59,084 nt of DNA. It comes from a virus (Duplodnaviria > Heunggongvirae > Uroviricota > Caudoviricetes). Positions 12,876-31,498 of the stretch are shown one piece after another. Under the pieces are notes generated by a model that saw nothing but the letters and a program-made list of their open reading frames with translations, did no database searches and had not been told where the DNA came from. Position 1 is the stretch's first letter, and the number at the start of each line of letters is the position of its first letter. The stretch is from IMG/VR virus record IMGVR_UViG_2703718809_000006. The stretch is one strand, 5' to 3'. The translations under genes were made by a program, and so were the position numbers.

Positions 12876-12957
12876 TGATTTTTAAAACAGAGGAAGTGAA
12901 AATAAAAACATGCCGCAAGGCGCGGCATGTATCCAATCAATCACAGGAGCTGAAAAT

Positions 12958-13044
12958 ATGAACACGGCATTCAAAATCATTATGGCCGCGATCTATTTCT
13001 GGCTGTTCTCTATCACTTTTGGCGGCATCGTCGCACATGGGTAA
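12958..13044 (+). CDS. Small hydrophobic peptide (28 aa, MNTAFKIIMAAIYFWLFSITFGGIVAHG), not in the ORF track
   Basis: ATG preceded by AGGAG and the CCAATCAATCA leader module; single predicted TM segment. Confidence 0.35.
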   Translation: MNTAFKIIMAAIYFWLFSITFGGIVAHG

Positions 13045-13053
13045 GGGGGATGC

Positions 13054-13635
13054 ATGAAAGGCGAAGTGAAAGAGCGCGGCATGATTTTTAACGATGAGAT
13101 GGTCCGGGCAATTCTTGGCGGGAATAAAACACAGACTCGCAGGATTGTTGAAGAAAAATTCTATGGACGGGCAGTGGCCGCAGAGTTGCTTGCCAAGCAT
13201 TGTCCATATGGTCAACCGGGCGATCGTATTTGGGTTCGCGAAACCTACCGGGTACATGGCAAAGCGACGGACGTCGCAACGCTGGTTTATCGCGCAAGCG
13301 TGCGTAACTCCTGGACAGAACAAACGCACCGGGTTCCGGTCGAGGTTTGTAATAAACCAGTATCAGAAAAGTGGACGCCATCAATTCACATGCCGCGCTG
13401 GGCATCGCGCATTCTTCTGGAAATTACCAACGTGCGCGTTGAGCGGTTGAACGATATCAGCGAATGCGATGCAAGGGCTGAGGGCGCACCAACAGAATCG
13501 ACCCTCATTGGCGATAAGCATTACCCAGGGTTCCGTAGCCTATGGAAATCAATTTATGGCGAAGATAGTTGGAACGCTAATCCTTGGGTGTGGGTAATAG
13601 AGTTTGAGCGTATTCAGGGGGCAACCAGTGAGTGA
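13054..13635 (+). CDS. Hypothetical protein (possibly ASCH-like)
   Basis: N-terminal 'MIFNDEMVRAILGGNKTQTRR' motif common in small phage proteins. Confidence 0.4.
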   Translation: MKGEVKERGMIFNDEMVRAILGGNKTQTRRIVEEKFYGRAVAAELLAKHCPYGQPGDRIWVRETYRVHGKATDVATLVYRASVRNSWTEQTHRVPVEVCNKPVSEKWTPSIHMPRWASRILLEITNVRVERLNDISECDARAEGAPTESTLIGDKHYPGFRSLWKSIYGEDSWNANPWVWVIEFERIQGATSE

Positions 13636-13888
13636 GTCAAAATGCCAAATTAATGGCAACAAGATAGAACCGTGCGCGGCGTTGGCACAATCCCTGGAGC
13701 ATGACGCTGAATACACGACGCGAAAAGGTCTGCTGAAATACAAAATCTATAACCATGAATTAATTCATTCACAAGACCTGATCATGCTGCGGTCTGGTGA
13801 ATTTTCTAAATCGCCTATTCGAGTTTCATTTTGCCCGTTCTGTGGTGAAAGTCTGAAAACGTGGGAAGCGGAGGCAACCAGTGAATAA
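13625..13888 (+). CDS. Small Cys-containing protein
   Basis: GTG start overlapping the upstream stop within the GGGGCAACCAGTGA junction module; 'CPFCGESL' motif. Confidence 0.4.
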   Translation, partial: PVSESKCQINGNKIEPCAALAQSLEHDAEYTTRKGLLKYKIYNHELIHSQDLIMLRSGEFSKSPIRVSFCPFCGESLKTWEAEATSE

Positions 13889-14525
13889 CCGCTTTTACAT
13901 GATGTGCTTGCGTGAAACTGTGGGTAATAACGCCTCATTCCATTGCCATAACGGCAATGGTTACAGTTCTGATATCGATCGCGCTCATGTTTACACGCTG
14001 GAAGAAGCCCAAAAAGCCTGGAATTGTGGACGAGATATCGATCAGCCTGTTTGCGCTGATAGCGTGGATGCAATGGCTGTGTGGCACGTTGATTGCCAGT
14101 ACATCCCCACAGAAAGCCTGATTGAGTCAGATTGCACTGCGTATGTGGCCTACAAAAAAGGTAGCTGGAACGGCAACGATGTTTACTGGCTTCAACACGG
14201 TGGATTGCCAACAGATGACTTCAGTAAAGCGACCATCTTTAGCGTCGCCAACAAAAACGAACCAGGAATAGTTTGGTTGCCATTTTCCATTGCTGATGCA
14301 GCAAAGCGTCGGACGTTCAATATCAATAACTTTAACCGCAGAACAATGGTTCAGGGCGCAGGTTTGGTCATGCCTGACTGGTTGAAAGAGCAGAACAGAA
14401 GAAAGAAGTCGCGAAGCGGGAAGGTGCGTTGGAATTGTCCGCATTGCGGAAAAATAACCTGGCAGTACAGCCCATATGATTTTGAAGGCTGTAGTGATTA
14501 CAACTGTGAAGGATGGCGAGAATGA
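13881..14525 (+). CDS. Cys-rich protein with C-terminal zinc-ribbon-like motif
   Basis: GTG start inside the GGAGGCAACCAGTGA junction; 'CPHCG...C..C' near the C-terminus. Confidence 0.45.
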   Translation: MNNRFYMMCLRETVGNNASFHCHNGNGYSSDIDRAHVYTLEEAQKAWNCGRDIDQPVCADSVDAMAVWHVDCQYIPTESLIESDCTAYVAYKKGSWNGNDVYWLQHGGLPTDDFSKATIFSVANKNEPGIVWLPFSIADAAKRRTFNINNFNRRTMVQGAGLVMPDWLKEQNRRKKSRSGKVRWNCPHCGKITWQYSPYDFEGCSDYNCEGWRE

Positions 14526-15109
14526 CAATTGACTATCAGGCACTGCGTGAGGCGGCAGTTGCAGTAGAAACAGAACCTATGCATCAAAATTTTGTGGCGT
14601 TTCGTATGGCGTTCACGCCATCGGTGGCACTGGCACTACTGGATGAAATTAAGCGGCTGGAAGACACAAATATTGATGCTATGTGCCGTATTGCAGAGCT
14701 TGAGACTAATCTCGCGGCGCTGGTGGCAGAGAACGCCGGACTGAAACACGCAATGGCCGTAACTCATGAGCATGTGTCGGTCACGGATGCAGGGCAGGCC
14801 GGAGTTGCTGCAATGATTATCAACGATGCCCTGCACCACAGCGAAACTCCAGCTACCGATGCTTTTCTAGCTGAAGTGAAGACTGAAGCACGCAAGGAAG
14901 GCGCTTATTTTGTGGCGAACAGAATGCTGGCTGCCTGGGAAGCTGGTTTTATTGATGATACTGCGAAGAACGCCGCGGATATTGCCCGGATGATTCTTAC
15001 CTCTACTGAGTTTATGGCTAATGCGCCGGAAGGCGATTTTGACCGCTCATTCTCTGATGGCGTTCTCGAAGATATCGCCGACCAGCTTCGAAAAGGAGGC
15101 AACCAGTGA
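14513..15109 (+). CDS. Hypothetical protein, tandem paralog 1
   Basis: Shares the N-terminal 'IDYQALREAA' block and an identical ~29-nt DNA stretch with the next gene. Confidence 0.45.
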   Translation: MARMTIDYQALREAAVAVETEPMHQNFVAFRMAFTPSVALALLDEIKRLEDTNIDAMCRIAELETNLAALVAENAGLKHAMAVTHEHVSVTDAGQAGVAAMIINDALHHSETPATDAFLAEVKTEARKEGAYFVANRMLAAWEAGFIDDTAKNAADIARMILTSTEFMANAPEGDFDRSFSDGVLEDIADQLRKGGNQ

Positions 15110-15804
15110 GCAAGATTGACTATCAGGCACTGCGTGAGGCGGCGGAACGTGCAATTCCAGCAATGGAACGCCTGTTAATGTTGCCAGCTGATGATGATTT
15201 GTTAAGTGAACAGGAACTTAAAGATTACGGTGTGGATATTGATGCGCTCAACGCCTTCAAATTTCTGGCCGGACCAGAAACCGTGCTGGCACTACTGGAT
15301 GAACGGGAAAGAAACCAGCAATACATCAAACGCCGCGACCAGGAGAACGAGGATATTGCGCTAACGGTAGGGAAGCTGCGTGTTGAGCTTGAGGAGACAA
15401 AATCAAAACTCAACGAGCAGCGTGAGTATTACGAAGGTGTTATCTCGGATGGAAGTAAGCGTATTGCTGAACTGGAGAAAAGCGAAGAGCAACTCATTAA
15501 CGAGCGTGACCATGCTGAGTCTGCTTTAGCTGATATGTATTTTGCAGCAACCGGGGATAGGCCTGAGTGGAGTAACTGGTTCGGTTTTTCAGATGCAGTA
15601 GATGCCGTAGTTGACAGAATTGCTGATTTAGAAGCTAAACAGCCATCGCCAGTAGTACCTGAAGGACTGATTAAAGCGGTGCGTTTTTATGAGCAGGTAA
15701 AACGTGAGAACCCGCCAGTCGAAACCGGAGCATGGAAAGACGCTGTTGACTGGGTGCTCAGAGAAGCTTGCCAGACTGTAAACATTGGTATCAAAGGAGA
15801 GTGA
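15106..15804 (+). CDS. Hypothetical protein, tandem paralog 2 (coiled-coil)
   Basis: GTG start inside the GGAGGCAACCAGTGA junction; N-terminus homologous to the previous ORF. Confidence 0.45.
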   Translation: MSKIDYQALREAAERAIPAMERLLMLPADDDLLSEQELKDYGVDIDALNAFKFLAGPETVLALLDERERNQQYIKRRDQENEDIALTVGKLRVELEETKSKLNEQREYYEGVISDGSKRIAELEKSEEQLINERDHAESALADMYFAATGDRPEWSNWFGFSDAVDAVVDRIADLEAKQPSPVVPEGLIKAVRFYEQVKRENPPVETGAWKDAVDWVLREACQTVNIGIKGE

Positions 15805-16298
15805 GAGTGCAGATTTCACCGGTTACTCTTCGTGTTGCGAAGGCATTTATATCCAGACATCACCGACACAATAAACCCCCGGTGGGGCATAAATTCAGCA
15901 TTGGTCTGAGAAATGATGCCGGAGAATTGATAGGTGTGGCGACAGCCGGTCGACCTGTTGCACGACATTTGGACGATGGATTAACGCTTGAAGTAAATCG
16001 CACATGTACCACAGGAGAACGCAACGCTAACAGCGCGCTTTATGGTGCTGTCTGGCGGGCAGCAAAAGCTATGGGTTATCAACGTTGTATTACGTACACC
16101 CGGGCAGATGAATCAGGAGCATCTCTTCGCGCAGCTGGTTTTGTTCGTGTGAAAGAGCTTCCTCCAAGAAAAAGCTGGGCGGAATCAAGCGTCGCCCTGC
16201 GGAGTAAACGCGATCCGGTCGGAAACGGTGGTGTTCCTCGTGTGCTCTGGGAAATCAGGAGAATGAGTACCACTGGCATTCGCATCAAAGGAGAGTGA
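15804..16298 (+). CDS. Hypothetical protein
   Basis: GTG start after the ATCAAAGGAGAGTGA junction module; 164 codons; no motif I can place. Confidence 0.4.
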   Translation, partial: RVQISPVTLRVAKAFISRHHRHNKPPVGHKFSIGLRNDAGELIGVATAGRPVARHLDDGLTLEVNRTCTTGERNANSALYGAVWRAAKAMGYQRCITYTRADESGASLRAAGFVRVKELPPRKSWAESSVALRSKRDPVGNGGVPRVLWEIRRMSTTGIRIKGE

Positions 16299-16299
16299 T

Positions 16300-16563
16300 A
16301 TGGCAACTTTAACAAAAAAAGAACGGGCATGGTTGAATGAATTACAGGACGTTCTTGATCGCTGCCCATCACCGAAAAAAATTGGTTTTTACACCATTGG
16401 CGATAAAAGCATTTACCTGTATGACCTGCGCCGCATGGATGAAATCATGGAGGCTCTTGATAATCGTTCGTCGATGGATTGGTGTGTTGCTGTTCATGAT
16501 ATGAATGCAGGGTTTGATGAAAAGATTTTGTTCCCCTCATCAGTTGAAAGCACTGCGGGTTAA
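16300..16563 (+). CDS. Small hypothetical protein
   Basis: ATG after a second copy of the ATCAAAGGAGAGTGA junction module. Confidence 0.4.
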   Translation: MATLTKKERAWLNELQDVLDRCPSPKKIGFYTIGDKSIYLYDLRRMDEIMEALDNRSSMDWCVAVHDMNAGFDEKILFPSSVESTAG

Positions 16564-16573
16564 GGAGTAACAC

Positions 16574-17437
16574 ATGACCACTATTACCAAAGAACGTATT
16601 GAATTGTTCATTAAAAATCCGCTTGAAAACGGGCTTACCCGTGGTGAACAAATGGAACTGGCACGGATTGCGCTGGCATCGCTGGAAGCAGAGCCGGCGG
16701 CAAAGATTATAGCTCATTACCCATTAGGGGTTGACGTAGGCAAACAAAAATTCGTACAGGCCATTAGAGAGCTTCCTGACTTTGGCGGATATCTATTTGC
16801 CGCCCCTCCAGCGCCGATAGTGCCGGAAGAAATGTATTGGCAGGATGCGCCAGTTGAAGGCAGCAGCAAAGCGGCTGCATACGCTACAGGCTGGAACGAT
16901 TGCCGCGAAGCCATGCTTCAGTCCGGAAACTTTCGGGAAAACAAGAATTCGTCAACCAATAATTTTCGGGAAATCGCGGAAACGTCAACCAACTATCCGG
17001 TAATTCCTAGTGAGGTGTTGTCCGCAATCTTGAAGGTTGCCAAGATTCGTGCCGATTTCGATGATTTTGACGGTGACAGGCGAGGTATCGGTGATTGTCT
17101 GGATGAGGCTGAGCAAGAGCTTATCGTTACCATTAACAAATATGCCAGTCAGTTGGCAGCAGAACCTATAGCGCCTAATGACGTTCGAGAGCAGACAGCC
17201 ATTCCGCAAGTTCCGGTAACTCCGGATGGTTGGATAAGCTGTAGTGAGCGAATGCCGGATACCAAAACAGCCGTTCTTGTTGCCAGGGAGTTTGACAGGA
17301 AAGGTGACTGGCGAATGAAATGGGCGACTTACATCCCGGGGCATCCTGACGCTAATGATGGGTGGGTAATACCTGGTGCGTCGTGGATTCCATCACACTG
17401 GATGCCGCTACCAGAACCGCCGCAGGAGGCGAAATGA
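16574..17437 (+). CDS. Phage protein with DUF551-like C-terminal domain
   Basis: C-terminal 'W...VLVA...W...HWMPLPEPP' pattern; imperfect intragenic tandem repeat at about 16921-16990. Confidence 0.5.
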   Translation: MTTITKERIELFIKNPLENGLTRGEQMELARIALASLEAEPAAKIIAHYPLGVDVGKQKFVQAIRELPDFGGYLFAAPPAPIVPEEMYWQDAPVEGSSKAAAYATGWNDCREAMLQSGNFRENKNSSTNNFREIAETSTNYPVIPSEVLSAILKVAKIRADFDDFDGDRRGIGDCLDEAEQELIVTINKYASQLAAEPIAPNDVREQTAIPQVPVTPDGWISCSERMPDTKTAVLVAREFDRKGDWRMKWATYIPGHPDANDGWVIPGASWIPSHWMPLPEPPQEAK

Positions 17438-17694
17438 TGGATGTAAAAGAGAAGGTTTTGCAGGTGATGCGTTCCCGTGCTGCCCTACAAGAGAAAGCTC
17501 TCGGCGGTGAATATCCATTCACGATAGCAACCTGGAATCTGCGGTTGGCAATGGAGAAGGAATTTCCTGATGAAGAATGGCGCTCGGCAGATTTGCGCAA
17601 AATTCTTATGGAGCTGGCTAAAGACGGAACAGTATCCAAAGATACCCATGCCAGCCGGATTGGTCAGGCGGTATGGAGACTTGAGGTGCGGTAA
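17434..17694 (+). CDS. Small hypothetical protein
   Basis: ATG overlapping the upstream stop; 86 codons. Confidence 0.4.
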   Translation: MMDVKEKVLQVMRSRAALQEKALGGEYPFTIATWNLRLAMEKEFPDEEWRSADLRKILMELAKDGTVSKDTHASRIGQAVWRLEVR

Positions 17695-17768
17695 TGAGCT
17701 GGCCTGAAGCATTTGCGATTGTAGGCGTAGCTATGGCGATTGCCGCTATTTTTATCTTCTGGGGGTAA
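17694..17768 (+). CDS. Small hydrophobic peptide (24 aa, MSWPEAFAIVGVAMAIAAIFIFWG), not in the ORF track
   Basis: ATG overlaps the upstream TAA; one TM-like segment. Confidence 0.3.
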   Translation: MSWPEAFAIVGVAMAIAAIFIFWG

Positions 17769-17770
17769 CG

Positions 17771-18004
17771 ATGGGAAAATTAACTTTTGTTGTCGAATTT
17801 GAGGATGGCAAAGAGCCACCTGTTAGCGCCAATCTTGATGTTGCTGGTGGCAGGCTGGTTTCGGTTCTATTTGGTGATTACCGCGACGACTTCTTTCAGC
17901 CTGAAGAAGTTGATGTAGTGCGAGAAGCATTAAACGAGCTAAGTGTTGATAACGATGATGCTCATGCGGAAATCATCAAAAAAATGGAACTGCTAACTCA
18001 CTAA
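17771..18004 (+). CDS. Small acidic hypothetical protein
   Basis: 77-aa ORF in operon context. Confidence 0.4.
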   Translation: MGKLTFVVEFEDGKEPPVSANLDVAGGRLVSVLFGDYRDDFFQPEEVDVVREALNELSVDNDDAHAEIIKKMELLTH

Positions 18005-18052
18005 ATTATCAATTATGGTGCTATCACCTACGACACCGAGAGAAAATTTATA

Positions 18053-18175
18053 ATGTCAAAAGTAAATGTTTTGATTTTTTCAGCAATTGTTGGCTTTGGT
18101 TTTACTGCCGGAGTGCAGATTTATATTGCGTGGGAAAAAATCATCAACTACGCATGGAGTTGTTTTATTAAGTGA
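18053..18175 (+). CDS. Small hydrophobic peptide (40 aa, MSKVNVLIFSAIVGFGFTAGVQIYIAWEKIINYAWSCFIK), not in the ORF track
   Basis: ATG-initiated ORF with one TM-like segment upstream of the 18183 gene. Confidence 0.3.
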   Translation: MSKVNVLIFSAIVGFGFTAGVQIYIAWEKIINYAWSCFIK

Positions 18176-18182
18176 GGTAAGT

Positions 18183-18476
18183 ATGTGGAGAGGTAATAGT
18201 CATGGCAAAAGCCAGATGATACTTACCGAATATCAGTTTGACCATAAAACCAATAAATCACGTTCAGTATATTTGCTTCGGCACAATAGCCGCGTAAGGA
18301 ATACCGTGCTGGAGCAAAATCTGACTGTTGAAATGGATAATTACGGTGGCTTCAAGCCAACAATTTCGCTTGATGATTTTCCTCGTGGTTTAAGCGAAAG
18401 AGAAGCAATGCTGAAATTAGCAGAATGGCTACAAAGATTAAGCATTGCTATTGAAGATAACTGGTCTGAACCTTAA
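18183..18476 (+). CDS. Hypothetical protein
   Basis: Probable ATG start at 18183 (MWRGNSHGK...) within track ORF 18087-18476. Confidence 0.4.
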   Translation: MWRGNSHGKSQMILTEYQFDHKTNKSRSVYLLRHNSRVRNTVLEQNLTVEMDNYGGFKPTISLDDFPRGLSEREAMLKLAEWLQRLSIAIEDNWSEP

Positions 18477-18482
18477 ATTTAT

Positions 18483-18857
18483 ATGATGACACTAAAACAT
18501 TTTCTTGACCGCCCATTATGGGCGGCAGCCGCAGGCTATGACTTTAATTATATGGATTGCATGTCTTATACTGCCAATGCATACGACCATTCGTTCAGCC
18601 TGCTGTTTAATTCTTTAAGAATATTGCCGGAAACAGAAGTTGGAGAGCTTCATTTATGGCTATTGGGCTTTATCGCGGCTGTCGTTGGTATTGCTGTATG
18701 GCCTTTTATTTTCTGGCTGGTGGCTGTTGTAGTGTGGTTTAAGTGCAAGACGTACCGGAGAAAGTATTTCTTAGGTGATGGAATGACTGATATTGCCAAA
18801 ATGAACATTGAAAAATGGACTAAGGAATGTGAAAAGAAATGGCGCAAAAAGAAATGA
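18483..18857 (+). CDS. Membrane protein
   Basis: Hydrophobic segment 'LWLLGFIAAVVGIAVWPFIFWLVAVVVWF' followed by a basic tail. Confidence 0.45.
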   Translation: MMTLKHFLDRPLWAAAAGYDFNYMDCMSYTANAYDHSFSLLFNSLRILPETEVGELHLWLLGFIAAVVGIAVWPFIFWLVAVVVWFKCKTYRRKYFLGDGMTDIAKMNIEKWTKECEKKWRKKK

Positions 18858-19771
18858 CCAGAATCACTGAAGAGCGTATATCAGAGATTATTTCCCGTAT
18901 CGAAATGTATGGTCACGGTGCTGGATATACGGCAGATGAAGTATTGGCACTTGCCCAAATGGTTTTGGCGGCTTGCAAAGATGATAAAAAAATGAAGTTT
19001 ATCGACTTGTTAGTGAAGGAGCTGCCTAAGTGCGGCGGGTGGCCTGATGGAATGAGTTATTGTTACCTACCCAGTGTCAATTTAATGGCACCATGCGCGA
19101 CTTTTGCTTTTGGCTCAGACCACAAAAAAGACACTTTCTTTGGGCGCAATTTTTGTTGTGATATTGAGCTTCCAATTGGTGACCTTGATAGCGATGAATA
19201 CCAGTCAGTTGTCACTCGCGAACAATACGAATCAGCTCTCATAGCGTCGCAGAAAGTCGAGTTCAATGGTGATGAACTTGAAAGTAAGACTTACAGGTTG
19301 GATTTTGGGCAATGGCTGGAACAGCAACGCGGGAAAATCGATGTGGACTGTGGTTGTGTGTCCACTGAAACATTCATGCACTGGCTGCGGGTAGCTTACG
19401 AGGCTGGCAACTATCCGGATATTCCGGATAGTTCGGTGCCAGCGCCAGGAAAGGGCGTCACCGGTGAACGTATCCGCATTAAGCCGCATGTTTATCGCGA
19501 ACTGGTTAACCGTCTCCACGATACAGCGATCAAGTGTGCTGGCACCCAGCAATTACGAGAAAGAATTAGCCGTGTTTTGGGCGACGTTATTACGCCATAT
19601 CATCATAAACAAGCCGAGAAAAGCGGTCTGGAAAGGTGTCATCTTGAGGCAGCATTAAACATTAAGCCGGGGCATACGCTTGGCATTATTGATGCACTGT
19701 TGGTTCATAAGATGGCCATGGCTTTATTGTCGTTGGTGGACGCTGGTGATACAAGCGAGGGTGAAGTATGA
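18839..19771 (+). CDS. Hypothetical protein
   Basis: 310-aa ORF overlapping both neighbours. Confidence 0.45.
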   Translation: MAQKEMTRITEERISEIISRIEMYGHGAGYTADEVLALAQMVLAACKDDKKMKFIDLLVKELPKCGGWPDGMSYCYLPSVNLMAPCATFAFGSDHKKDTFFGRNFCCDIELPIGDLDSDEYQSVVTREQYESALIASQKVEFNGDELESKTYRLDFGQWLEQQRGKIDVDCGCVSTETFMHWLRVAYEAGNYPDIPDSSVPAPGKGVTGERIRIKPHVYRELVNRLHDTAIKCAGTQQLRERISRVLGDVITPYHHKQAEKSGLERCHLEAALNIKPGHTLGIIDALLVHKMAMALLSLVDAGDTSEGEV

Positions 19772-20130
19772 GAGTTGCAGATCACATCAAACACCTTGAA
19801 AGAATTATCGAAAACGGTGAACTCTTAAGAGATCAGATGAGACGCACGGCAGAAGCCAGGGAGGCGATAATCCGCAGTCAGGCTGGTAAATTAAAGCAAT
19901 TGTCAGAGATTAACACGCTATACAAGAACAGACGTAACCGGGCGGTGATGCGGCTTCAGAAAGCACGTAATGAAATTAAATTGGTGGAGGCAAAACTGAA
20001 AAAACAGATCCAGCGTTACGATCAGCAAGATGCTTTTTATGCCGCCATCAAGGCGGCTGCTAATGAAATAGGCATCTGGAAGTTGCTGGTGGAGAAAGCA
20101 AAGACGAAGTTAAATGCCAACGAAAGCTGA
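19768..20130 (+). CDS. Coiled-coil protein
   Basis: ATGA overlap with the upstream gene; K/E/R-rich heptad-like sequence. Confidence 0.45.
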   Translation: MRVADHIKHLERIIENGELLRDQMRRTAEAREAIIRSQAGKLKQLSEINTLYKNRRNRAVMRLQKARNEIKLVEAKLKKQIQRYDQQDAFYAAIKAAANEIGIWKLLVEKAKTKLNANES

Positions 20131-20205
20131 ACTACAGGTGCCCACCAGCACATACAGAAAATGATTGTTTCCACATCAAGGAGATTTTAATGTTTCACTG
20201 AAACA

Positions 20206-20343
20206 TTAAGTAAGCCAGTGCATAATTCCATTTTTTACTGACCTTAAAAGCAAAATCAAAACGATGATGAGGATAATAGCCAGAATCTGGCTAATAATAG
20301 GCGCATCTAAAAATGCACTCAGGAACTGAAAAAAAGCGTTCAT
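20206..20343 (-). CDS. Small hydrophobic peptide (45 aa, MNAFFQFLSAFLDAPIISQILAIILIIVLILLLRSVKNGIMHWLT); candidate type I toxin-like or membrane peptide
   Basis: Minus-strand ATG-to-TAA ORF inside an otherwise ORF-poor region; stop lies in the perfect palindrome TTAATGTTTCA/CTGAAACATTAA. Confidence 0.3.
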   Translation of the reverse strand: MNAFFQFLSAFLDAPIISQILAIILIIVLILLLRSVKNGIMHWLT

Positions 20344-21205
20344 TCAGGTGGTTCCTTGTCAAATGTAAAGGTGCACTTGCTCACGTTGACGTAGAAACCC
20401 AACCCCTATATAGTTGGATTCGGTGAATGAAAGTCGTTAACGTGAGCTTACGGCACATGTTTTCGGAAAAACATCAGGGAACGGCTAATTCCTTGATGCG
20501 GGTGGGGTCTGTAATGCAGACCCTATCTATTAACGTCATGATTGCATCTCAAATTTTCTCCTTATCTTCAATTAATCTACATTCATTTCATCTGTTAGCC
20601 ACCACAATATGTAGAAAATGGCCCTCTTGCAAGTGCATAACTTTGTGGATAACTCAGGAAGGAAAAAGTGGCTTTCGCGCACCTTCGGTCAGACAAGGTG
20701 TCCGGGAAAGTCAACGCAAAGAAAAAAATTGTTAAAAATAACGTTTGTTGGAATTGTATATTTCTATCCCCTTCAATGGTTAGCATTCTATTAACATCTT
20801 TTTTTAGAGACAGAAAAACATATCGTAACAACATATATACAGTATTAAGAGGCGAGTATTATCCTGCGGTGGGAATTCTGGGTGCTGTTAGATTCGACTT
20901 TCTCAGCAGGATTACATCGTCAACTTGCGACGTTGCCGTATGACTTTCGTGTAATAGGTGACAATGATGCGGCTAGTGAGTTACTTGTGAAGTTTTTCGG
21001 AAAAGGTTTTGTGGCCTCGGATCTTGATGAGCTACAGCAACATGAAGTGTCTAATTTGATTTTTAGCCATAGCCAATAAGCCTCCCTCCTCCATCAAGGC
21101 CACAATTTGTGACCTTAAACAATTTGTTTTCTGCTTTTTCTTATTTGAGGAAATAACGTTGTTGACAGCTAATAGGCTCGTTGTTGTTATACATGCCTGT
21201 ATAGA

Positions 21206-22775: not shown

Positions 22776-22783
22776 AGGTGTTT

Positions 22784-23385: not shown

Positions 23386-23389
23386 ATTA

Positions 23390-23569: not shown

Positions 23570-23596
23570 AGCCCAATCAGTGATGAAAGGTGTGAT

Positions 23597-24640
23597 GTGA
23601 AAGCCGTAATTACTCCCTTTGTACAAAAAGAGCTTGGCGTCGCCACATTCAAAGTGGATCAGGAAGTCAGAAAGCTGGTGGAGGCTGGCCGTAAATTTAT
23701 TATGGAGCCGGTGCCGCGTGAGTTAATCGAGCACATGGACGACGGCCTCGTTGTTTCCGAGCAGACTATGGCAACAAATGAGGCGTTGCAGCCGTTTTTT
23801 AACAGCGATGAACTGTTTCGCCGTATTGGTGGAATTGACGCGCTGGTGGCGTGGTTGCGTAGGAAAGAGGGTCAATGCCAGGCCGCAGATCGTAGTTGGT
23901 GTGACAACCATATTGTCCACGCTGAACGAGACAATAGCGCGGTGTTGTTGTGCTGGCATCACGATAACCATTACCGGATGCGTGGTTTTAATGAGCTGAA
24001 AGAAACGCTGCATAATAATCGCGTTAACTGGATACTGGATGTCGCCCGTCAGGAAATGGGGCTTTCAGATGGCCATGATTTAAGTATTCAGGAACTGTGC
24101 TGGTGGGCTTTCATGCGCAACATGATGCACCTGATGCCGGAAGAAGTTTGCCGTATATCAATAAATAAGATGAAAGCCGCAACGCAGGATAGCGGACCTC
24201 TGAAAGAGGCGGATATTCGCCCGTATGACGATCGCGCTACAGCATATGTTCAGATGATGGAAGAACGCGCCGCGCCGATGCGTGCAAAAGTATGCCCTGT
24301 GGATGTTGACTCCGACCCTGGCATGGCGCATTTCAAAATACCAAAACTTCAATCGCTAAAATTGCCCGAGTACATGGATTTTGTGGCTTCCCGTCCATGC
24401 TGTGGCTGTGGAGCTGCGGGAGCTGGCGCTCACATTACGCCTTATATCGTTCGTCATAGTCGATTATGCGCGCATGACATTTATGCTATTCCTCTGTGCC
24501 AGTCATGCCAGCGTGATATTGAGCGTGACCGCGATAATTGGGAGAAGACGCACGGTAGGCTGGCGATGCATCAACGATTGTTCTTTGATTACGCGCTTGG
24601 AGTCGGCGCTATCACAAGTCATTCGTCGAGCGTTAGATAA
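23597..24640 (+). CDS. Cys-rich DUF968-like protein in the pdcB position
   Basis: GTG start after AAAGGTG; C-terminal '[17 protein letters not shown]...CQSCQRD' cysteine cluster. Confidence 0.5.
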
Positions 24641-24641
24641 A

Positions 24642-24658
24642 ATTGCTCTAATGTATTG
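24642..24658 (+). promoter_or_regulatory. C1-operator-like 17-mer upstream of lpa
   Basis: ATTGCTCTAATGTATTG, followed by a second overlapping ATTGCT repeat. Confidence 0.55.
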
Positions 24659-24728
24659 CTATTTCTTTAATCGAGGGTATTATATTCGACGTTGATTAGT
24701 TGACATGGGCTAATCAGTAGGTGACAGG

Positions 24729-25181
24729 ATGTTACTTAACTGGCAGGGACGCCACTTCATGGAAATAAATCACTCACGAATAACATCGTACGAGATTGCG
24801 GATTACATGATCCGCACTAAATCTCTTCTATCAGCGAAAGAACTCGCAGCAATTCTTGAAAAGGAATACCCGCATCTGGATGTCGATAAGCGCGATGTTT
24901 ATCTGCGCTTAAAGGCTATCGCTGTGTCTAAGTATTCGTCTGTTTTGATTGATGACAGTACACGCCCACGTAGATTTCAGATCCACTCTCTGAATCCTGA
25001 ATTCTTTCGCCGCAGCCGCGCTCCGCGCCGGTTTGATGAAAAACTCCAGAACGAACTCTATATGACGCAGGACGAAAAGGAACGCCGGGAGCACCAGCCT
25101 TGGGTGATGGCGCGTCAACTTTTCAATAAGGTGGTCCGTCAGCACCGTCATTACGGTAATGCCACATCCGCACGTATCTGA
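24729..25181 (+). CDS. lpa: Late promoter activator (Lpa-like)
   Basis: Position between the pdcB-like gene and pacA with an operator upstream, matching the P1 order; start may be the ATG at 24759. Confidence 0.55.
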   Translation: MLLNWQGRHFMEINHSRITSYEIADYMIRTKSLLSAKELAAILEKEYPHLDVDKRDVYLRLKAIAVSKYSSVLIDDSTRPRRFQIHSLNPEFFRRSRAPRRFDEKLQNELYMTQDEKERREHQPWVMARQLFNKVVRQHRHYGNATSARI

Positions 25182-25267
25182 TTGATTGCTTGCCCGTTCC
25201 GGGCCTTTTGACATGTGACTTTCGTTACCCTCGCGTCAAAAAGAGTTTTATACGAAAGGAAGCATAA

Positions 25268-26461
25268 GTGACCTGGGACGATCACAAGAAGAATTTTGCT
25301 CGCCTGGCGCGAGATGGTGGTTACACCATCGCACAGTATGCCGCCGAGTTTAATCTTAACCCTAATACCGCACGTCGTTATCTCCGTGCCTTCAAAGAAG
25401 ACACCAGGACAGCGGACAGCCGCAAGCCAAATAAGCCAGTCAGGAAGCCTCTAAAAAGCATGATCATTGATCACGCTAATGATCAACGTGCAGGTGATCA
25501 CATTGTGGCTGAAATGGCTGAAAAACAAAGAGTTAATGCTGTTGTCAGTGCCGCAGTCGAGAACGCTAAGCGCCAAAATAAGCGCATAAATGATCGTTCT
25601 GATGATCATGACGTGATCACCCGCGCCCACCGTACCTTACGTGATCGCCTGGAACGCGACACCCTGGATGATGATGGTGAACGCTTTGAATTCGAAGCTG
25701 GCGATTACCTGATAGATAACGTTGAAGCGCGGAAGGCCGCGCGCGCTATGTTGCGTCGGTCCGGGGCCGATGTTCTGGAAACCACTCTTCTGGAAAAGTC
25801 TCTTTCTCATCTCCTTATGCTGGAGAACGCCAGGGATACGTGTATTCGTCTGGTGCAGGAAATGCGCGATCAGCAAAAAGACGATGATGAAGGTACTCCG
25901 CCTGAATACCGTATCGCGAGCATGCTAAACAGCTGTTCCGCGCAGATAAGCAGCCTGATCAACACCATTTACAGCATCCGGAATAACTATCGAAAAGAAA
26001 GCCGGGAGGCGGAAAAGCACGCTTTGTCTATGGGGCAAGCTGGCATTGTTAAGCTGGCATACGAACGAAAGCGTGAAAATAACTGGTCAGTGCTGGAAGC
26101 AGCTGAATTCATCGAGGCGCATGGCGGGAAAGTGCCGCCCCTGATGCTGGAGCAAATCAAAGCCGATCTGCGTGCTCCGAAGACCAATACCGATGATGAG
26201 GAAAGGCAAACAGCCGTCGGTGGCCCTTCTCTTGAAGATCTGGACAAAGTTGCGCGAGAACGGGCCGCCAACCGCCGCGCCGATGCCGCATTGTGGATTG
26301 AGCAGCGTAGGGAAGAAATCGCCGATATCGTTGATACAGGCGGTTATGGAGATGTTGATACTGAAGGTGTATCAAACGAACCATGGCTGGAACAAGACCT
26401 GGACGAAGACGAGGAGGAAGACGAAGAAGTTACCCGCAAGCTATACGGGGATGATGATTAA
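25268..26461 (+). CDS. pacA: Terminase (pacase) small subunit PacA
   Basis: 397 aa; contains the pac site internally; acidic C-terminus. Confidence 0.85.
25461..25619. other. pac packaging site: seven GATC-containing hexamers in two clusters
   Basis: Four TGATCA at 25461-25500 and TGATCG/TGATCA/TGATCA at 25591-25619; matches the P1 pac 4+3 architecture. Confidence 0.8.
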
Positions 26462-27945
26462 TGGCCAGAAGTTGCGTAACGGATCCACGTTGGCGCGAGC
26501 TGGTGGCGCTATATCGTTATGACTGGATTGCGGCCGCTGATGTTTTGTTCGGCAAAACACCTACCTGGCAGCAGGATCTGATTATTGAGTCTGTGCAGGA
26601 ACAGGGTAGCAAGACATCTGTTTCGTCTGGCCACGGTACCGGGAAATCAGACATGACTTCTATCATGATCATGTTGTTCATAATCATGTATCCCGGTGCC
26701 CGAGCCATTATCGTTGCGAACAAAATTCAGCAGGTAATGACCGGTATATTCAAGTACATCAAGATAAACTGGGCTACTGCCACCAGCCGTTTTCCATGGC
26801 TTGCTGATTATTTTGTTCTGACAGAAACCGCTTTCTATGAGGTTACTGGTAAAGGTGTATGGACTGTAGTACCGAAGGGCTTTCGTCTGGGAAGTGAAGA
26901 AGCTCTCGCCGGTGAACACGCAGATCATCTTCTGTATATTATCGATGAAGCCTCCGGTGTCAGTGATAGAGCTTTCGGTATCATCACCGGTGCTCTTACC
27001 GGACAGGATAACCGCATCTTATTGCTGTCACAGCCTACACGCCCAAGCGGCTATTTCTACGATACACACCATAAACTGGCCAAGCGTCCTGGTAACCCTG
27101 ATGGCGTTTATACGGCGATCACGCTTAACAGTGAGGAATCACCGCTGGTAACGCCAGCATTTATCAAAATGAAGCTGGCGGAGTACGGCGGGCGCGATAA
27201 CCCTATGTACATGATTAAGGTACGCGGCCTATTCCCTAAATCACAGGATGGCTTCCTTCTTGGACGTGATGAGGTTGAACGTGCAACGCGGCGGAAAGTC
27301 AAGATTGCCAAAGGATGGGGCTGGCTTGCATGTGTGGACGTTGCTGGTGGTACGGGAAGGGATAAGTCCGTTATCAATATCATGATGGTGTCCGGCCAGC
27401 GAAACAAACGCCGTGTAATCAACTATCGAATGCTGGAATACACAGACGTTACAGAAACGCAGCTTGCCGCCAAAATTTTCGCAGAATGTAATCCTGAGCG
27501 ATTCCCAAATATCACCATAGCGATAGACGGCGATGGCCTGGGTAAAGCAACAGCGGATCTGATGTACGAGTATTATGGTATTACCGTACAGCGTATACGC
27601 TGGGGTAAAAAGATGCATAGCCGTGAAGATAAGAGCCTGTACTTTGATAAACGTGCTTATGCCAATGTTCAAGCCGCAGAGGCCGTAAAATCTGGTCGTA
27701 TGAGACTGGATAAGGGTAATGAAACTATTGAGGAAGCGTCGAAAATCCCTGTAGGGATTAACTCCGCAGGTCAATGGAAGGTGATGAGTAAGGAGGATAT
27801 GAAGAAAAAACTCAACCTGCACTCACCAGACCATTGGGATACATATTGTTTCGCTATGCTGGCGGATTATGTTCCCCAGGATGAAGTGCTTAGCGTCGAA
27901 GACGAAGCGCAGGTTGATGAAGCTCTGGCATGGCTTAATGAATAA
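26461..27945 (+). CDS. pacB: Terminase (pacase) large subunit PacB
   Basis: 494 aa; ATG overlaps the pacA stop. Confidence 0.85.
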
Positions 27946-27969
27946 CTCATTGACCATGCCGGATGGAAA

Positions 27970-28821
27970 CTATTGCGCGCTTTCGGGGTTGTCGTTTACT
28001 GGCTGCCCTTTCTTAGTTTTACGGCTGCGCGTAACTGATGCGGCTGATTTGACCTTTTTCTCTTCGCGAGTGATGGCAATTTGTTTTTTTACATTTTCAA
28101 TATCTGCCAGGCGATATATTTTTGCCTGCGGCCAGCGGTCGCAGATGATCGGTTCTATAGAGTCATAAAGGCTAAATTTTGCTTTCTCGAATTCACCGTT
28201 GATGATAATTCCATCACGGAGAGTTTCATCGCAGATAAACACACCACATAGCGGCACATGGTAACTAACTGATTTACCATCATTGTAGTTAGGGCTACTA
28301 GAAATGTAATGGACGCGCAGCATTGTTTCGCTAAAGCCGTGTACGCGCATACGGAATTTTTCATCCTCCGGGTACTGCTTCATTAGCTCTTTTGTTGCTT
28401 CCAGGTTCTCTATGTATTTCGCACTGTGCTCATTGATCCCTGCGCTTTTCTGGATGCGAATGTCCTTATCAATCAGATGAATAATGCGGCCAGCGGTCAT
28501 GTTGACGCTGTTCACAGCTTCTGTCTGATAAGTCGTAACCTTACGCACACCGCGAAGGATGTTAGGCACTGGATATAAAATAGTCTTTGGGATATTGAGG
28601 TCTGGGTACTGTTCCAGTTCCCGCGCCATTAAAGTCCATTTATCAATTTCAGCCTGAATGCTGTCAGTTTCTTTGAACGGCAGAACGACAACCGGGCGTA
28701 CAGGACGACCGTCGCTGGCGGCATCAACGTGTTGGGCGCGTGCAACAGCTTTTTTTAGAAAGAGATCCCTGAAGCTGACGAACTCCTGGTACAGTTGTTC
28801 GCCGTAGACATAATTTATCAT
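27970..28821 (-). CDS. c1: C1 immunity repressor
   Basis: 283 aa; position downstream of coi; operator-like sites nearby. Confidence 0.85.
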   Translation of the reverse strand: MINYVYGEQLYQEFVSFRDLFLKKAVARAQHVDAASDGRPVRPVVVLPFKETDSIQAEIDKWTLMARELEQYPDLNIPKTILYPVPNILRGVRKVTTYQTEAVNSVNMTAGRIIHLIDKDIRIQKSAGINEHSAKYIENLEATKELMKQYPEDEKFRMRVHGFSETMLRVHYISSSPNYNDGKSVSYHVPLCGVFICDETLRDGIIINGEFEKAKFSLYDSIEPIICDRWPQAKIYRLADIENVKKQIAITREEKKVKSAASVTRSRKTKKGQPVNDNPESAQ

Positions 28822-28915
28822 TGATCCTCCTCCAGAATTGACATGGCCAACAACTCACAGCGGATTACACTGGGAGTTGTTGGCCACCATTATAGAAGGA
28901 TCCAACGAAAATAAT

Positions 28916-28932
28916 AGATTTATTAGTGCATT
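28916..28932 (-). promoter_or_regulatory. C1-operator-like 17-mer between c1 and coi
   Basis: AGATTTATTAGTGCATT (14/17 to the consensus on the minus strand). Confidence 0.45.
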
Positions 28933-29141
28933 TATTGTGAGTCTGGCTGGTTAGTGGCCATGAGATATTCGATTGTGTCAGTGAGATCATCCAGGTCGTC
29001 TTGGGTGATGCGGTACTCCTGATTGGATATCTTTGAGTAGTGTTCAGCAATGGCGCGGGCAGCGTCGGTTTCGGCGGGGTCTACAGATAAAGCGTTAGAG
29101 CAATGTCTAACGTCGTCGATGGTTGGTGGAATGAAAGCCAT
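28932..29141 (-). CDS. coi: Coi, C1 inactivator
   Basis: 69-aa acidic protein immediately upstream of c1 on the same strand. Confidence 0.8.
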   Translation of the reverse strand: MAFIPPTIDDVRHCSNALSVDPAETDAARAIAEHYSKISNQEYRITQDDLDDLTDTIEYLMATNQPDSQ

Positions 29142-29379
29142 AATTATGCCTCACTGTATTGACAACACAGAGCCTGAAGCTCTGACCTACTGTTTCACCC
29201 ATGATCCATGCTGGGGTAATCTAACAACATTGCGCTGTGTGTAAGATGAGCAATGCATAGCTGTAATGCCGTTGTATAAGGTTTCCCTGTTTGCTCATTT
29301 CCTTCTGAGCCGCTCTACAACGCTGAAGACACATTAAATAGTGAATCCAAAGTCGTATTACGAAACGGCGGCAAAACTA

Positions 29380-29396
29380 TAATTTATTAGAGCAAT
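29380..29396 (-). promoter_or_regulatory. C1-operator-like 17-mer
   Basis: TAATTTATTAGAGCAAT (minus-strand ATTGCTCTAATAAATTA, 16/17). Confidence 0.55.
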
Positions 29397-29462
29397 TGTC
29401 AAACAACTATGAAAAACAATCCAGTTTTTGGCTGGTGGAGTGGGATTTTTCTCTCAAAAATT

Positions 29463-29479
29463 ATTGCTCTAATAATTCT
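29463..29479 (+). promoter_or_regulatory. C1-operator-like 17-mer
   Basis: ATTGCTCTAATAATTCT. Confidence 0.55.
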
Positions 29480-29522
29480 TGATTTTTATGCGCAGCTGGA
29501 CGTAAACTCCTCTTCGGACCTA

Positions 29523-29556
29523 ATAACTTCGTATAGCATACATTATACGAAGTTAT
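29523..29556. other. loxP site
   Basis: Exact 34-bp ATAACTTCGTATA-GCATACAT-TATACGAAGTTAT. Confidence 0.97.
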
Positions 29557-29575
29557 CTTAAGGGTTATTGAACAT

Positions 29576-29648
29576 GATCAATTTACCTGTAAATCCATAC
29601 AGTTCAATACCTTATCAGGTCAAATAGTGATCACTTGATCATTTGATC
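29576..29648. promoter_or_regulatory. Cluster of four Dam GATC sites in the cre upstream region
   Basis: GATC at about 29576, 29629, 29637 and 29645; P1 cre promoters are Dam-sensitive (established knowledge). Confidence 0.55.
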
Positions 29649-29745
29649 AAGGTTGCGCTACGTAAAATCTGCGAAATGTTGGCAGTGTTAGTGCTCCAGA
29701 TTTCGCGTAGCGCACTTAGCACCACCAATCAATCAGAGGTGAAAA

Positions 29746-29967
29746 ATGGGATATTCAGCTGCTAAAGTGTCCACTCATCTTGAGCTTGAGAAAAACCGTG
29801 GTTACTGGCGGGCAAAAGGGTTTGATCGTGATAGTTGTCAACTGTCATTATCGCGCGGTGAAGAGAAAATAGAACGCACGCGCGGTCGCTGGCGTTTCTA
29901 TGACGAGAACCATAAACAGGTAAAGGCAGAGCCGATCCTGTACACTTTACTTAAAACCATTATCTGA
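29746..29967 (+). CDS. cra: Cra-like small protein upstream of cre
   Basis: 73-aa ORF ending 7 nt before cre; leader carries the CCAATCAATCA module. Confidence 0.6.
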   Translation: MGYSAAKVSTHLELEKNRGYWRAKGFDRDSCQLSLSRGEEKIERTRGRWRFYDENHKQVKAEPILYTLLKTII

Positions 29968-29974
29968 GTGTTAA

Positions 29975-31006
29975 ATGTCCAATTTACTGACCGTACACCA
30001 AAATTTGCCTGCATTACCGGTCGATGCAACGAGTGATGAGGTTCGCAAGAACCTGATGGACATGTTCAGGGATCGCCAGGCGTTTTCTGAGCATACCTGG
30101 AAAATGCTTCTGTCCGTTTGCCGGTCGTGGGCGGCATGGTGCAAGTTGAATAACCGGAAATGGTTTCCCGCAGAACCTGAAGATGTTCGCGATTATCTTC
30201 TATATCTTCAGGCGCGCGGTCTGGCAGTAAAAACTATCCAGCAACATTTGGGCCAGCTAAACATGCTTCATCGTCGGTCCGGGCTGCCACGACCAAGTGA
30301 CAGCAATGCTGTTTCACTGGTTATGCGGCGGATTCGAAAAGAAAACGTTGATGCCGGTGAACGTGCAAAACAGGCATTGGCGTTCGAACGCACTGATTTC
30401 GACCAGGTTCGTTCACTCATGGGAAATAGCGATCGCTGCCAGGATATACGGAATCTGGCATTTCTGGGGATTGCTTATAACACCCTGTTACGTATAGCCG
30501 AAATTGCCAGGATCAGGGTTAAAGATATCTCACGTACTGACGGTGGGAGAATGTTAATCCATATTGGCAGAACGAAAACGCTGGTTAGCACCGCAGGTGT
30601 AGAGAAGGCACTTAGCCTGGGGGTAACTAAACTGGTCGAGCGATGGATTTCCGTCTCTGGTGTGGCTGATGATCCGAATAACTACTTGTTTTGCCGGGTC
30701 AGAAAAAATGGTGTTGCCTCGCCATCATCCACCAGCCAGCTATCAACTCGCGCCCTGGAAGGGATTTTTGAAGCAACTCACCGATTGATTTACGGGGCTA
30801 AGGATGACTCTGGTCAGAGGTACCTGGCCTGGTCTGGACACAGTGCCCGTGTCGGAGCCGCGCGAGATATGGCCCGCGCCGGAGTTTCAATACCGGAGAT
30901 CATGCAAGCTGGTGGCTGGACCAACGTAAATATTGTCATGAACTATATCCGTAACCTGGATAGTGAAACAGGGGCAATGGTGCGCCTGCTGGAAGATGGC
31001 GATTAG
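29975..31006 (+). CDS. cre: Cre tyrosine recombinase
   Basis: 343 aa, MSNLLTVHQNLPALPVDATSDEVRKNLMDMFRDRQAFSEHTWKMLLSVCRSWAAWCKLNNRKWFPAEPEDVRDYLLYLQARGLAVKTIQQHLGQLNMLHRRSGLPRPSDSNAVSLVMRRIRKENVDAGERAKQALAFERTDFDQVRSLM..., matches Cre as I recall it. Confidence 0.97.
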   Translation: MSNLLTVHQNLPALPVDATSDEVRKNLMDMFRDRQAFSEHTWKMLLSVCRSWAAWCKLNNRKWFPAEPEDVRDYLLYLQARGLAVKTIQQHLGQLNMLHRRSGLPRPSDSNAVSLVMRRIRKENVDAGERAKQALAFERTDFDQVRSLMGNSDRCQDIRNLAFLGIAYNTLLRIAEIARIRVKDISRTDGGRMLIHIGRTKTLVSTAGVEKALSLGVTKLVERWISVSGVADDPNNYLFCRVRKNGVASPSSTSQLSTRALEGIFEATHRLIYGAKDDSGQRYLAWSGHSARVGAARDMARAGVSIPEIMQAGGWTNVNIVMNYIRNLDSETGAMVRLLEDGD

Positions 31007-31023
31007 CCATTAACGCGTAAATG

Positions 31024-31040
31024 ATTGCTCTAATTCTTTG
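31024..31040 (+). promoter_or_regulatory. C1-operator-like 17-mer upstream of c8
   Basis: ATTGCTCTAATTCTTTG. Confidence 0.5.
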
Positions 31041-31056
31041 ATATTTATGGTGACAT

Positions 31057-31368
31057 ATGAGAAAGAATTTCAACATCGACGGAAAATATGTAGTGCTGTC
31101 AGTGAGCACTAATATTCAGTCGCCAGCCGTCATTGTCACTGTAAAGCTGAGCGATAGAATGCCTGATATTGACTCAATATCCGTTGCGTTCCCTGTCAGA
31201 AGTATGCGTAGTGCTGAACATTTCGTGATGAATGCCACCGAGGAAGAAGCACGGCGCGGTTTTGCTAAAGTGATGTCTGAGTTTGGCGAATTTTTGGGGC
31301 ACGTTGACAAAGCCCTCTCAATCAGTTCAGCAAGGTCCAAAGCATTAACAGCTTCCATGATGAAATAA
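31057..31368 (+). CDS. c8: Small protein in the P1 c8 position
   Basis: 103-aa ORF between cre and ref. Confidence 0.5.
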   Translation: MRKNFNIDGKYVVLSVSTNIQSPAVIVTVKLSDRMPDIDSISVAFPVRSMRSAEHFVMNATEEEARRGFAKVMSEFGEFLGHVDKALSISSARSKALTASMMK

Positions 31369-31498
31369 AAAAAGCCTGGCAAGGAGCCAGGCTGCACAAA
31401 AGAGCGGGTTTGTATTCCGCATCCAATCAATCAAGAAGGAGTATAGCACACAGGTACTGAAGTGAAAAAATGTGATTCGCGATAAACAAAATCTCTAC

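Follow-up and report, generated by a model that had tools for sequence, protein, structure and literature searches.

The intergenic region between c8 and ref of P1-family phages quite likely encodes, on its minus strand, a small RNA (sRNA) of about 68 nucleotides (nt), the 5' end of which would pair with a short box that recurs in the translation-initiation regions of several phage genes. This reading comes from the analysis of a 59,084-nt stretch of viral DNA (IMG/VR record IMGVR_UViG_2703718809_000006; in the following "the window"), which is 99.9% identical to Salmonella phage SJ46 and 99.4% identical to phage P7 (stretch 12000-14500 compared), shares 96-97.5% identity with P1-family phages across the cre-ref stretch and is, by these identities, a P7/SJ46-like P1-family phage-plasmid. 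The box had been noticed in an earlier sequence-only reading of the window and was explained there as part of a plus-strand leader module, possibly the target of an RNA-binding regulator, that is present at three loci with one degenerate copy. Comparison with related phage-plasmids bears out the leaders at two of the three loci, but for the third it points to the minus strand.

The 11-mer on which that proposal was built, CCAATCAATCA, is indeed present in three exact plus-strand copies at the positions reported (12933-12943, 29725-29735 and 31423-31433, referred to as loci 1, 2 and 3), while the minus strand of the window has none; with up to one mismatch allowed, eight occurrences are found against 2.0 expected, and the first 100 kb of P7 contain the same three exact copies only. 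Locus 1 is situated between pap and upf86.8/pmgT, directly after the C1 operator Op(hea), called Op88/OpmgT in P1; locus 2 coincides with the ribosome-binding region of cra (upf0.2), which is the first gene past lox; and locus 3 lies in the c8-ref intergenic region. The detailed GenBank records of P1 and P7 carry no annotation at any of the three. Because 54 canonical 11-mers also reach at least three copies in the window, chiefly C1 operators and Chi-like GCTGGTGG words, the three-fold recurrence by itself is weak evidence, and the argument is carried by context and comparative data. The conserved core comprises 10 nt, CCAATCAATC, rather than 11, and has a fourth copy in the window within codons 7-10 of pmgS/shtB (11038-11047). 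In an unbiased count, the only 10-mers with at least four copies in each of P7, Cronobacter phage JK004 and one Salmonella phage-plasmid were C1-operator words, Chi words and CCAATCAATC/CAATCAATCA. Chance recurrence, or inert remnants of old duplications, would fit the many 11-mers found at least three times in the window, but is extremely improbable as an explanation of a box that is a conserved island in three lineages, is strand- and position-specific and forms one of only three repeated 10-mer classes. As a separate observation, Chi-like GCTGGTGG words on both strands are among the top-repeated 10- and 11-mers throughout the window (e.g. 12300-12320, 26497, 30727 and 44340), an enrichment common to the window, JK004 and the Salmonella plasmid. 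An integration host factor (IHF) site and complementarity to 16S rRNA were also considered for the box, and neither appeared to fit on inspection.

A scan for promoters and canonical terminators at locus 3 found both on the minus strand only. The plus-strand sequence AGTATAGCACA reads as TGTGCTATACT on the minus strand, which is an extended -10 promoter (TGTGcTATACT, 31440-31450; consensus scan 9/12 match with the TG present, -10 hexamer TATACT at 31445-31440), and a weak -35-like element, TTTTCA (31468-31463), is separated from the -10 hexamer by a 17-nt spacer and corresponds to the "tgaaaa" that had been read on the plus strand. With a transcription start 7-8 nt past the -10 hexamer, the complement of the box becomes the first nucleotides of an RNA of about 68 nt. 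The gene predicted from the scan, the fold, the homologs and a covariance model spans 31365-31433 of the minus strand (nt about 1826-1893 of P7, AF503408, with P1 numbering about 1 lower), the 5' end being placed at G31432 or U31433 and the 3' end in the U-run at about 31365. The seed GAUUGAUUGG (31423-31432), complementary to the plus-strand box, forms the 5' end and is predicted to be single-stranded. It is followed by stem-loop 1 (SL1, 31401-31424), which consists of an inner stem GCGG/CCGC with a weak extension GGA/UCU, by a U-rich linker (CUCUUUUGUGCA in P7) and by an intrinsic terminator (31363-31393), in which the stem-loop AGCCUGGC uccuu GCCAGGCU (31393-31373) precedes U6-7 A U3; the corresponding minus-strand DNA reads AGCCTGGC-TCCTT-GCCAGGCT, then TTTTTTATTT. 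The predicted fold, with single-stranded seed, SL1, linker and terminator, has a free energy of -23.2 kcal/mol (z = -3.1). The U-tail and the U-rich linker are at most suggestive of Hfq/ProQ binding. On the plus strand an A-run stands before the terminator hairpin and TGCAC after it, the U-run being present on the minus strand only, so that it would not terminate plus-strand transcription, and no plus-strand terminator was found after c8.

In the sequence-only reading, locus 3 was a degenerate copy of the leader, in which an ATG is immediately followed by a stop codon. The ATG-TGA does exist, 1 nt away from where it had been placed (31470-31475), and a hairpin precedes each copy of the 11-mer, as had been proposed, the first at 12908-12930, the second as a large imperfect palindrome at 29653-29717 and the third at 31373-31393, about 4 nt from the coordinates given before. 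However, neither AAGGAG nor ATG-TGA at locus 3 is conserved: the plus-strand stretch with the Shine-Dalgarno (SD) sequence and ATG-TGA is variable among P1-type relatives, and in JK004 and the Salmonella lineage it reads GAATGAGTATA, without SD and without ATG-TGA. The degenerate leader with a start-stop open reading frame (ORF) is therefore not supported, and a plus-strand ORF at this locus was rejected as not conserved. The sole minus-strand ORF, which would start at AUG31421 (GG-AUG-CGG), was likewise rejected, since the sequences of the relatives do not conserve it. Since the conserved features of locus 3 read on the minus strand, the idea of a regulator acting at the RNA level was right in spirit, but the likely regulator is an RNA encoded by locus 3 and not an RNA-binding protein.

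Conservation of the sRNA gene was followed in three lineages, namely P7/P1, Cronobacter phage JK004, the Cre of which is about 80% identical, and a group of Salmonella phage-plasmids. Relatives were collected by tblastn with Cre in plasmids and phages, by blastn with the JK004 sRNA region and by a related-locus search with three Cre queries; beyond the three lineages and the minor variants L138, L412 and L415, the last of which is left out of the comparison of target leaders, no further diverged lineage was found in the databases searched, and the part of the D6 Dre region that was examined has neither box nor sRNA. In about 80 P1-type contigs the sequence is almost invariant from the terminator through TGTGCTATACT and becomes variable beyond it, including the GTGAAAAAATGTGA of the earlier reading. 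The seed is invariant in 12 aligned variants from the three lineages, as well as in 33 of the 33 distinct variants among the roughly 80 P1-type loci examined, in JK004 and in the Salmonella plasmids. TGTGnTATACT is conserved in all three lineages and its distance from the seed is constant, whereas the -35 region is variable. The minus-strand unit that follows c8 in JK004 and Salmonella comprises TGTGaTATACT, a 7-nt spacer, GAUUGAUUGG, a stem-loop, a (U/A)GUGCA linker and the terminator. In two P1-type IMG/VR contigs (L186 and L204), mobile elements have inserted just upstream of the extended -10, at the equivalent of about 31453, and have left TGTGCTATACT and the sRNA intact; one of the insertion ends resembles what we take to be a Tn21/Tn1721-type inverted repeat.

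The structure is conserved independently of the sequence. The inner stems of SL1, GCGG/CCGC in P1/P7, GUAG/CUAC in JK004 and UGCA/UGCA in Salmonella, are unrelated in sequence and adopt the same fold, and G-U variants of SL1 in P1-type contigs are paired on the minus strand only. In the alignment, pairing of the terminator helix is complete (100%); in JK004 and Salmonella a U-A pair has become C-G by a double change and a G-C pair has become G-U. As the G-U pair would be a C-A mismatch on the plus strand, the minus strand is indicated as the functional one. Overall, 97.9% of the cells of the sRNA alignment are paired and four pairs are changed on both sides, values that none of 500 shuffles reached. 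Independent minimum free energy folds of the lineages give the same architecture, and in each genome the covariance model derived from the alignment detects a single full-length copy.

When the 14-nt 5' end of the sRNA was scanned for duplexes against both strands of the window, the three best non-self matches all fell into translation-initiation regions, while the best background match (-14.9 kcal/mol) did not. The most stable of them involves box 1 (CCAAUCAAUC, 12933-12942), which is located 15-25 nt upstream of the ATG of a 28-amino-acid (aa) ORF in the leader of the operon controlled by C1 at Op(hea)/Op88; here the duplex (12929-12944) reaches -18.5 kcal/mol and up to 15 contiguous base pairs (bp), and the box is predicted to be single-stranded. 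Second comes box 2 (29725-29734) in the cra-cre operon leader, which occupies positions -21 to -12 relative to the cra ATG, directly 5' of the SD GAGGUG (duplex 29724-29736, -15.7 kcal/mol). The third, box 3 (11038-11047), lies inside the pmgS/shtB coding sequence at +21 to +30 (codons 7-10; duplex 11037-11049, i.e. pmgS +20 to +32, -15.0 kcal/mol), and is again predicted to be single-stranded.

Searching other P1-like genomes for the module, as had been suggested, showed that the box is conserved at translation-initiation regions in all three lineages. JK004 has six copies of the 10-mer on one strand, of which the sixth is the sRNA gene itself and the other five are in translation-initiation regions: in the cre-operon leader, before a different first gene; in the locus-1 leader, before a homologous hydrophobic peptide; at +21 to +30 of pmgS; in the leader of g104, which encodes a C1-controlled small membrane protein; and directly abutting the ATG of ref (confirmed as PF16786), without an SD. 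The four exact copies of the Salmonella plasmid are the sRNA gene, the cre-operon leader, pmgS and g104, and the locus-1 box of this plasmid, TCAATCAATC, still pairs via a G-U wobble. Relative to start codons, the box is thus located between -25 and -1 or at +21 to +30. JK004 and Salmonella retain it at the 5' end of the cre operon although the first gene there differs from cra, and in pmgS the 10-mer occupies the same codon positions despite divergence of the neighbouring codons and of synonymous sites. When the orthologous sites are aligned, the box accordingly stands out as an island of identity amid diverged flanks, including the synonymous positions of pmgS.

In addition, the base next to the box varies together with the sRNA. 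Nucleotide 11 of the sRNA is C in JK004, where the base 5' of the box is G in five of five targets, and U in Salmonella, where that base is A in four of four; at the four orthologous sites, a G to A switch therefore goes along with the C to U switch in the sRNA, and the cognate sRNA gives the most stable duplex for all nine JK004 and Salmonella targets. P1/P7 is the exception to this covariation, since nucleotide 11 is A and the base 5' of the box is U at locus 1, where the duplex extends to 15 contiguous bp, but A at cra and pmgS, which gives no pair.

Loci 1 and 2 are genuine 5' leaders in which the box is placed just 5' of the SD, and the downstream elements proposed for them, CAGGAG..ATG (ATG at 12958) and GAGGTG..ATG (ATG at 29746), are found as described. 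To this extent the shared translation-initiation cassette was correctly recognised; for locus 3 it is not supported. At locus 1, the C1 operator (12859-12875, plus strand; P7 and P1 GenBank annotation) controls the leader promoter and is followed by a 5'-proximal stem-loop (12908-12930, plus strand) that is conserved in structure and not in sequence, with the arms ACAUGCCGC/GCGGCAUGU in P1/P7, GGCCGC/GCGGCC in JK004 and GGCCAC/GUGGCC in Salmonella. The same layout of C1 operator, promoter, 5'-proximal stem-loop, box, SD and ATG is present before g104 of the relatives, so that the leader module stands for locus 1 and for its paralogs. These clearly paralogous modules in JK004 and Salmonella, together with the position of the box beside the SD at loci 1 and 2, are what speaks for the view that all three loci are plus-strand 5'-leader cassettes (hairpin, box, SD, GAAAAATG), possibly bound by an RNA-binding protein, with locus 3 decayed to a start-stop ORF. 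The box is moreover G-free, C/A-rich and predicted to be single-stranded at locus 1 and pmgS, and known translational enhancers are G-poor, C/A-rich, single-stranded tracts. Composition and position fit such an enhancer at loci 1 and 2, but neither the pmgS box, which lies within the coding region at +21, nor the ref box of JK004, which abuts the ATG without an SD. Conservation at locus 3 extends to the minus-strand promoter and terminator but not to the SD and ATG-TGA, and a protein site predicts no tracking of the flanking base with nucleotide 11 of the sRNA, which makes the cassette a quite unlikely explanation of all three loci.

The first cistron past box 1 is the small hydrophobic 28-aa ORF (MNTAFKIIMAAIYFWLFSITFGGIVAHG, 12958-13044, plus strand), which lies upstream of upf86.8/pmgT and is absent from the GenBank annotation of P1 and P7. 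Homologs with the same N-terminal hydrophobic helix are present in JK004 and the Salmonella plasmids, and no Pfam or PHROG family matched it. According to notes in the P1 GenBank record (AF234172 84263-84507; locus L205 164-408), the segment comprising Op88, the hairpin, the box and the small ORF shares 96-98% identity with DNA that lies downstream of the hsd genes in E. coli EcoDXXI and plasmid R124/3, implying that the locus-1 leader module also exists outside P1-like phages. Read on the minus strand, the locus-1 hairpin with TTTTTATTTT (12898-12943) resembles a terminator directly after the seed sequence in P1/P7 only, and the covariance model gives a weak match to this strand in P7 (22.5 bits, E = 0.095). 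A scan found no minus-strand promoter at locus 1, and the U-run is missing in JK004 and Salmonella, so that a second sRNA gene or a cis-antisense antitoxin was rejected here; the resemblance may be coincidental or left over from a truncated copy of the sRNA, and the hairpin is treated as a putative plus-strand 5' stem-loop.

Upstream of box 2, the imperfect palindrome GCGCTACG(T)...(A)CGTAGCGC (29653-29717), which was seen in the fold, overlaps the -10 of the annotated promoter P3cre and flanks both the -10 and the start site, and transcripts from P3cre would consequently contain no more than the 3' half of the palindrome. Its outer arms show sequence conservation, without covariation, across P7, JK004 and the Salmonella plasmids, whereas its interior is different. 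Instead of an RNA hairpin, the palindrome could be an inverted repeat to which a protein binds. Beyond locus 3, a strong plus-strand intrinsic terminator (31584-31611, GGCGGCC-atca-GGCCGCC followed by T8) is located between the C1-controlled P2ref and the ref ATG (31617), and JK004 has a terminator of different sequence, also with T8, in the same place before ref. It may be an attenuator in the ref leader.

Several points weigh against the pairing of a locus-3 sRNA with the boxes. The start site and the 3' end of the RNA are predictions, and the last two bases of the seed (GG) are predicted to lie within the weak base of SL1. The cra (-15.7) and pmgS (-15.0) duplexes barely exceed the background (-14.9), and the pmgS box at +21 to +30 is at or beyond the edge of the usual window of translational repression. 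In the P1/P7 lineage, A11 of the sRNA pairs at locus 1 alone, leaving bare 10-bp duplexes at cra and pmgS. The structural covariation rests on few independent events, as the databases searched yielded three lineages only. Finally, all boxes and the sRNA gene share one DNA orientation in the three genomes, so that orientation alone is also compatible with a DNA-level site.

Such a site, to which a phage or host DNA-binding protein would bind and act on nearby promoters, would explain the common orientation of all copies, several of which are within about 40-80 bp of C1-controlled promoters. Nevertheless, the box is asymmetric, its distance to the promoters is variable and it is always found between the transcription start and the start codon or in the coding sequence; a DNA site would also leave the promoter, hairpins and terminator of locus 3 and the covariation of the flanking base unexplained, and is regarded as very unlikely. 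A role of the minus-strand RNA chiefly in cis has to be considered as well, in which it insulates ref from c8/cre transcription or triggers RNase III, the other boxes being unrelated C/A-rich enhancers. As there is no plus-strand terminator after c8, read-through RNA would be perfectly complementary to the sRNA, and the short duplexes at cra and pmgS in P7 are in line with this model. It is unlikely as the chief function, given that the 10-nt island is exact at three to five dispersed translation-initiation regions in three lineages and that the flanking base covaries in trans; cis and trans roles of the sRNA are, in principle, not mutually exclusive.

Taken as a trans-acting regulator, the minus strand of locus 3 would be transcribed from the -35-independent extended -10 promoter to the intrinsic terminator, and the first ten nucleotides of the RNA, GAUUGAUUGG, would, in single-stranded form, pair with the CCAAUCAAUC boxes that several phage mRNAs carry in their translation-initiation regions. 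The predicted targets in the window are the cra-cre leader (29725), the leader of the 28-aa-ORF operon (12933) and codons 7-10 of pmgS/shtB (11038), and in the relatives the C1-controlled small membrane protein g104 as well as, in JK004, ref. By analogy with enterobacterial sRNAs, pairing just 5' of or inside the ribosome footprint would block binding of the 30S subunit or recruit RNase E and thereby lower expression. Read-through transcripts of c8 are fully complementary to the sRNA and could titrate it. No C1 operator lies near the extended -10 promoter in JK004 and Salmonella, and Op(ref) of P7 is about 30 bp or more upstream of the -35, suggesting that the sRNA is probably made in the prophage state. 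Since most of the predicted targets are operons under C1 control, the sRNA may act as a second lock on leaky expression, at the post-transcriptional level and on top of C1 repression in the plasmid prophage. Expression of the sRNA, the direction of regulation and the physiological role are proposals from computation, and the role is less certain than the pairing of the sRNA with the boxes. It is in this sense only a tentative proposal, and rather more likely wrong than right in its full extent, that a constitutive sRNA forms a second, post-transcriptional immunity layer in P1-family phage-plasmids, silencing leaky C1-controlled operons, including those of type-I-toxin-like small membrane peptides, and the cra-cre leader, and being titrated on induction by target or c8 read-through RNA; the classical lysogeny-establishment phenotype of c8 could then be partly or wholly due to the sRNA.

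In silico, the locus displays what characterises trans-acting sRNAs: its own promoter and a Rho-independent terminator delimit a predicted non-coding transcript within the range of 50-300 nt, a conserved and predicted accessible seed is complementary to several mRNAs at or near the ribosome-binding site (RBS), and the secondary structure shows compensatory changes, although the independent lineages are few. The RNA of about 68 nt in P1/P7 is thus probably a previously unannotated, phage-encoded trans-acting sRNA. Rfam has no match in the window at gathering thresholds; below these, generic sRNA models match, all on the minus strand, the best being SorX with 22.6 bits against a cut-off of 46.6. 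No GenBank or RefSeq annotation of an sRNA at locus 3 was found, and a literature search that did not cover the 2004 P1 genome paper returned no paper with the sequence or with a P1 sRNA at this locus. In a 2025 preprint on P1vir in hfq mutants, c4 is the sole RNA mentioned.

Among the known systems compared, Hfq-type trans-acting sRNAs with 5' seeds, such as RybB, OmrA/B and MicC or the prophage-encoded DicF and IsrK, share the length of about 65-70 nt, the own promoter, the single-stranded conserved 5' seed of about 10 nt, the internal stem-loop, the Rho-independent terminator with U-tail and multiple targets in RBS regions. They differ in that the locus-3 sRNA has no sequence or Rfam relationship with them and that the predicted targets found are phage genes. 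A gene resembling RNA chaperones of the ProQ/FinO family was observed in Salmonella (L411 41602-42132; NZ_CP077703 84602-85132) and JK004 (81956-82489), the two being 75% identical, and no homolog was found in P7 or the window.

The c4 antisense RNA of the immI region of P1/P7 is similar in being a short RNA of the same phage with short complementary boxes at a ribosome-binding region, and reportedly acts via these boxes to silence a lytic/anti-immunity function. It is located at 51057-51133 of P7 in the immI operon (P7 annotation) and is processed from the same transcript as its targets, whereas the locus-3 sRNA would be transcribed from a promoter of its own between c8 and ref, and its several predicted targets are dispersed. 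As the sequence of c4 is unrelated and has no complementarity to the box, c4 was rejected both as the partner of the box and as the identity of the locus-3 sRNA. The CI RNA of satellite phage P4 with its seqA/seqC repeats is likewise a small phage RNA complementary to repeated boxes in phage transcripts and mediates RNA-based prophage silencing. CI RNA arises by processing of the leader of its own target operon and acts through premature termination; by contrast, the locus-3 sRNA has an independent promoter and boxes at translation-initiation regions. Type I toxin-antitoxin systems with trans-encoded antitoxins (tisB/istR-1, zorO/orzO) are a further parallel, in that two of the predicted targets, the 28-aa ORF and g104, are small hydrophobic peptides, whose structured 5' untranslated regions contain a short predicted sRNA pairing site as those of type I toxins do. 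The 28-aa ORF has the best predicted duplex, yet no family matches. The genes of the sRNA (31365-31433) and of this ORF (12958-13044) are neither adjacent nor overlapping, being about 18.3-18.5 kb apart, and there are predicted non-toxin targets, too.

Of 5426 complete E. coli genomes, 615 (about 11%) carry the sRNA region, almost always on plasmids, where RefSeq annotates the neighbouring protein gene only. Cre-lox comes from P1, which ranks among the best-studied phages, and to our knowledge the regulatory RNAs so far known in this phage are c4 and the lytic replicon's antisense RNA. If the proposal is true, a third P1 RNA would add a post-transcriptional layer to the control of lysogeny, with a regulon that would include the cre-operon leader, pmgS and a C1-controlled operon whose first cistron encodes a small hydrophobic peptide. 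It would, moreover, account for a class of repeated sequence that ranks with C1 operators and Chi, in a family of phage-plasmids that are clinically relevant carriers of resistance genes.

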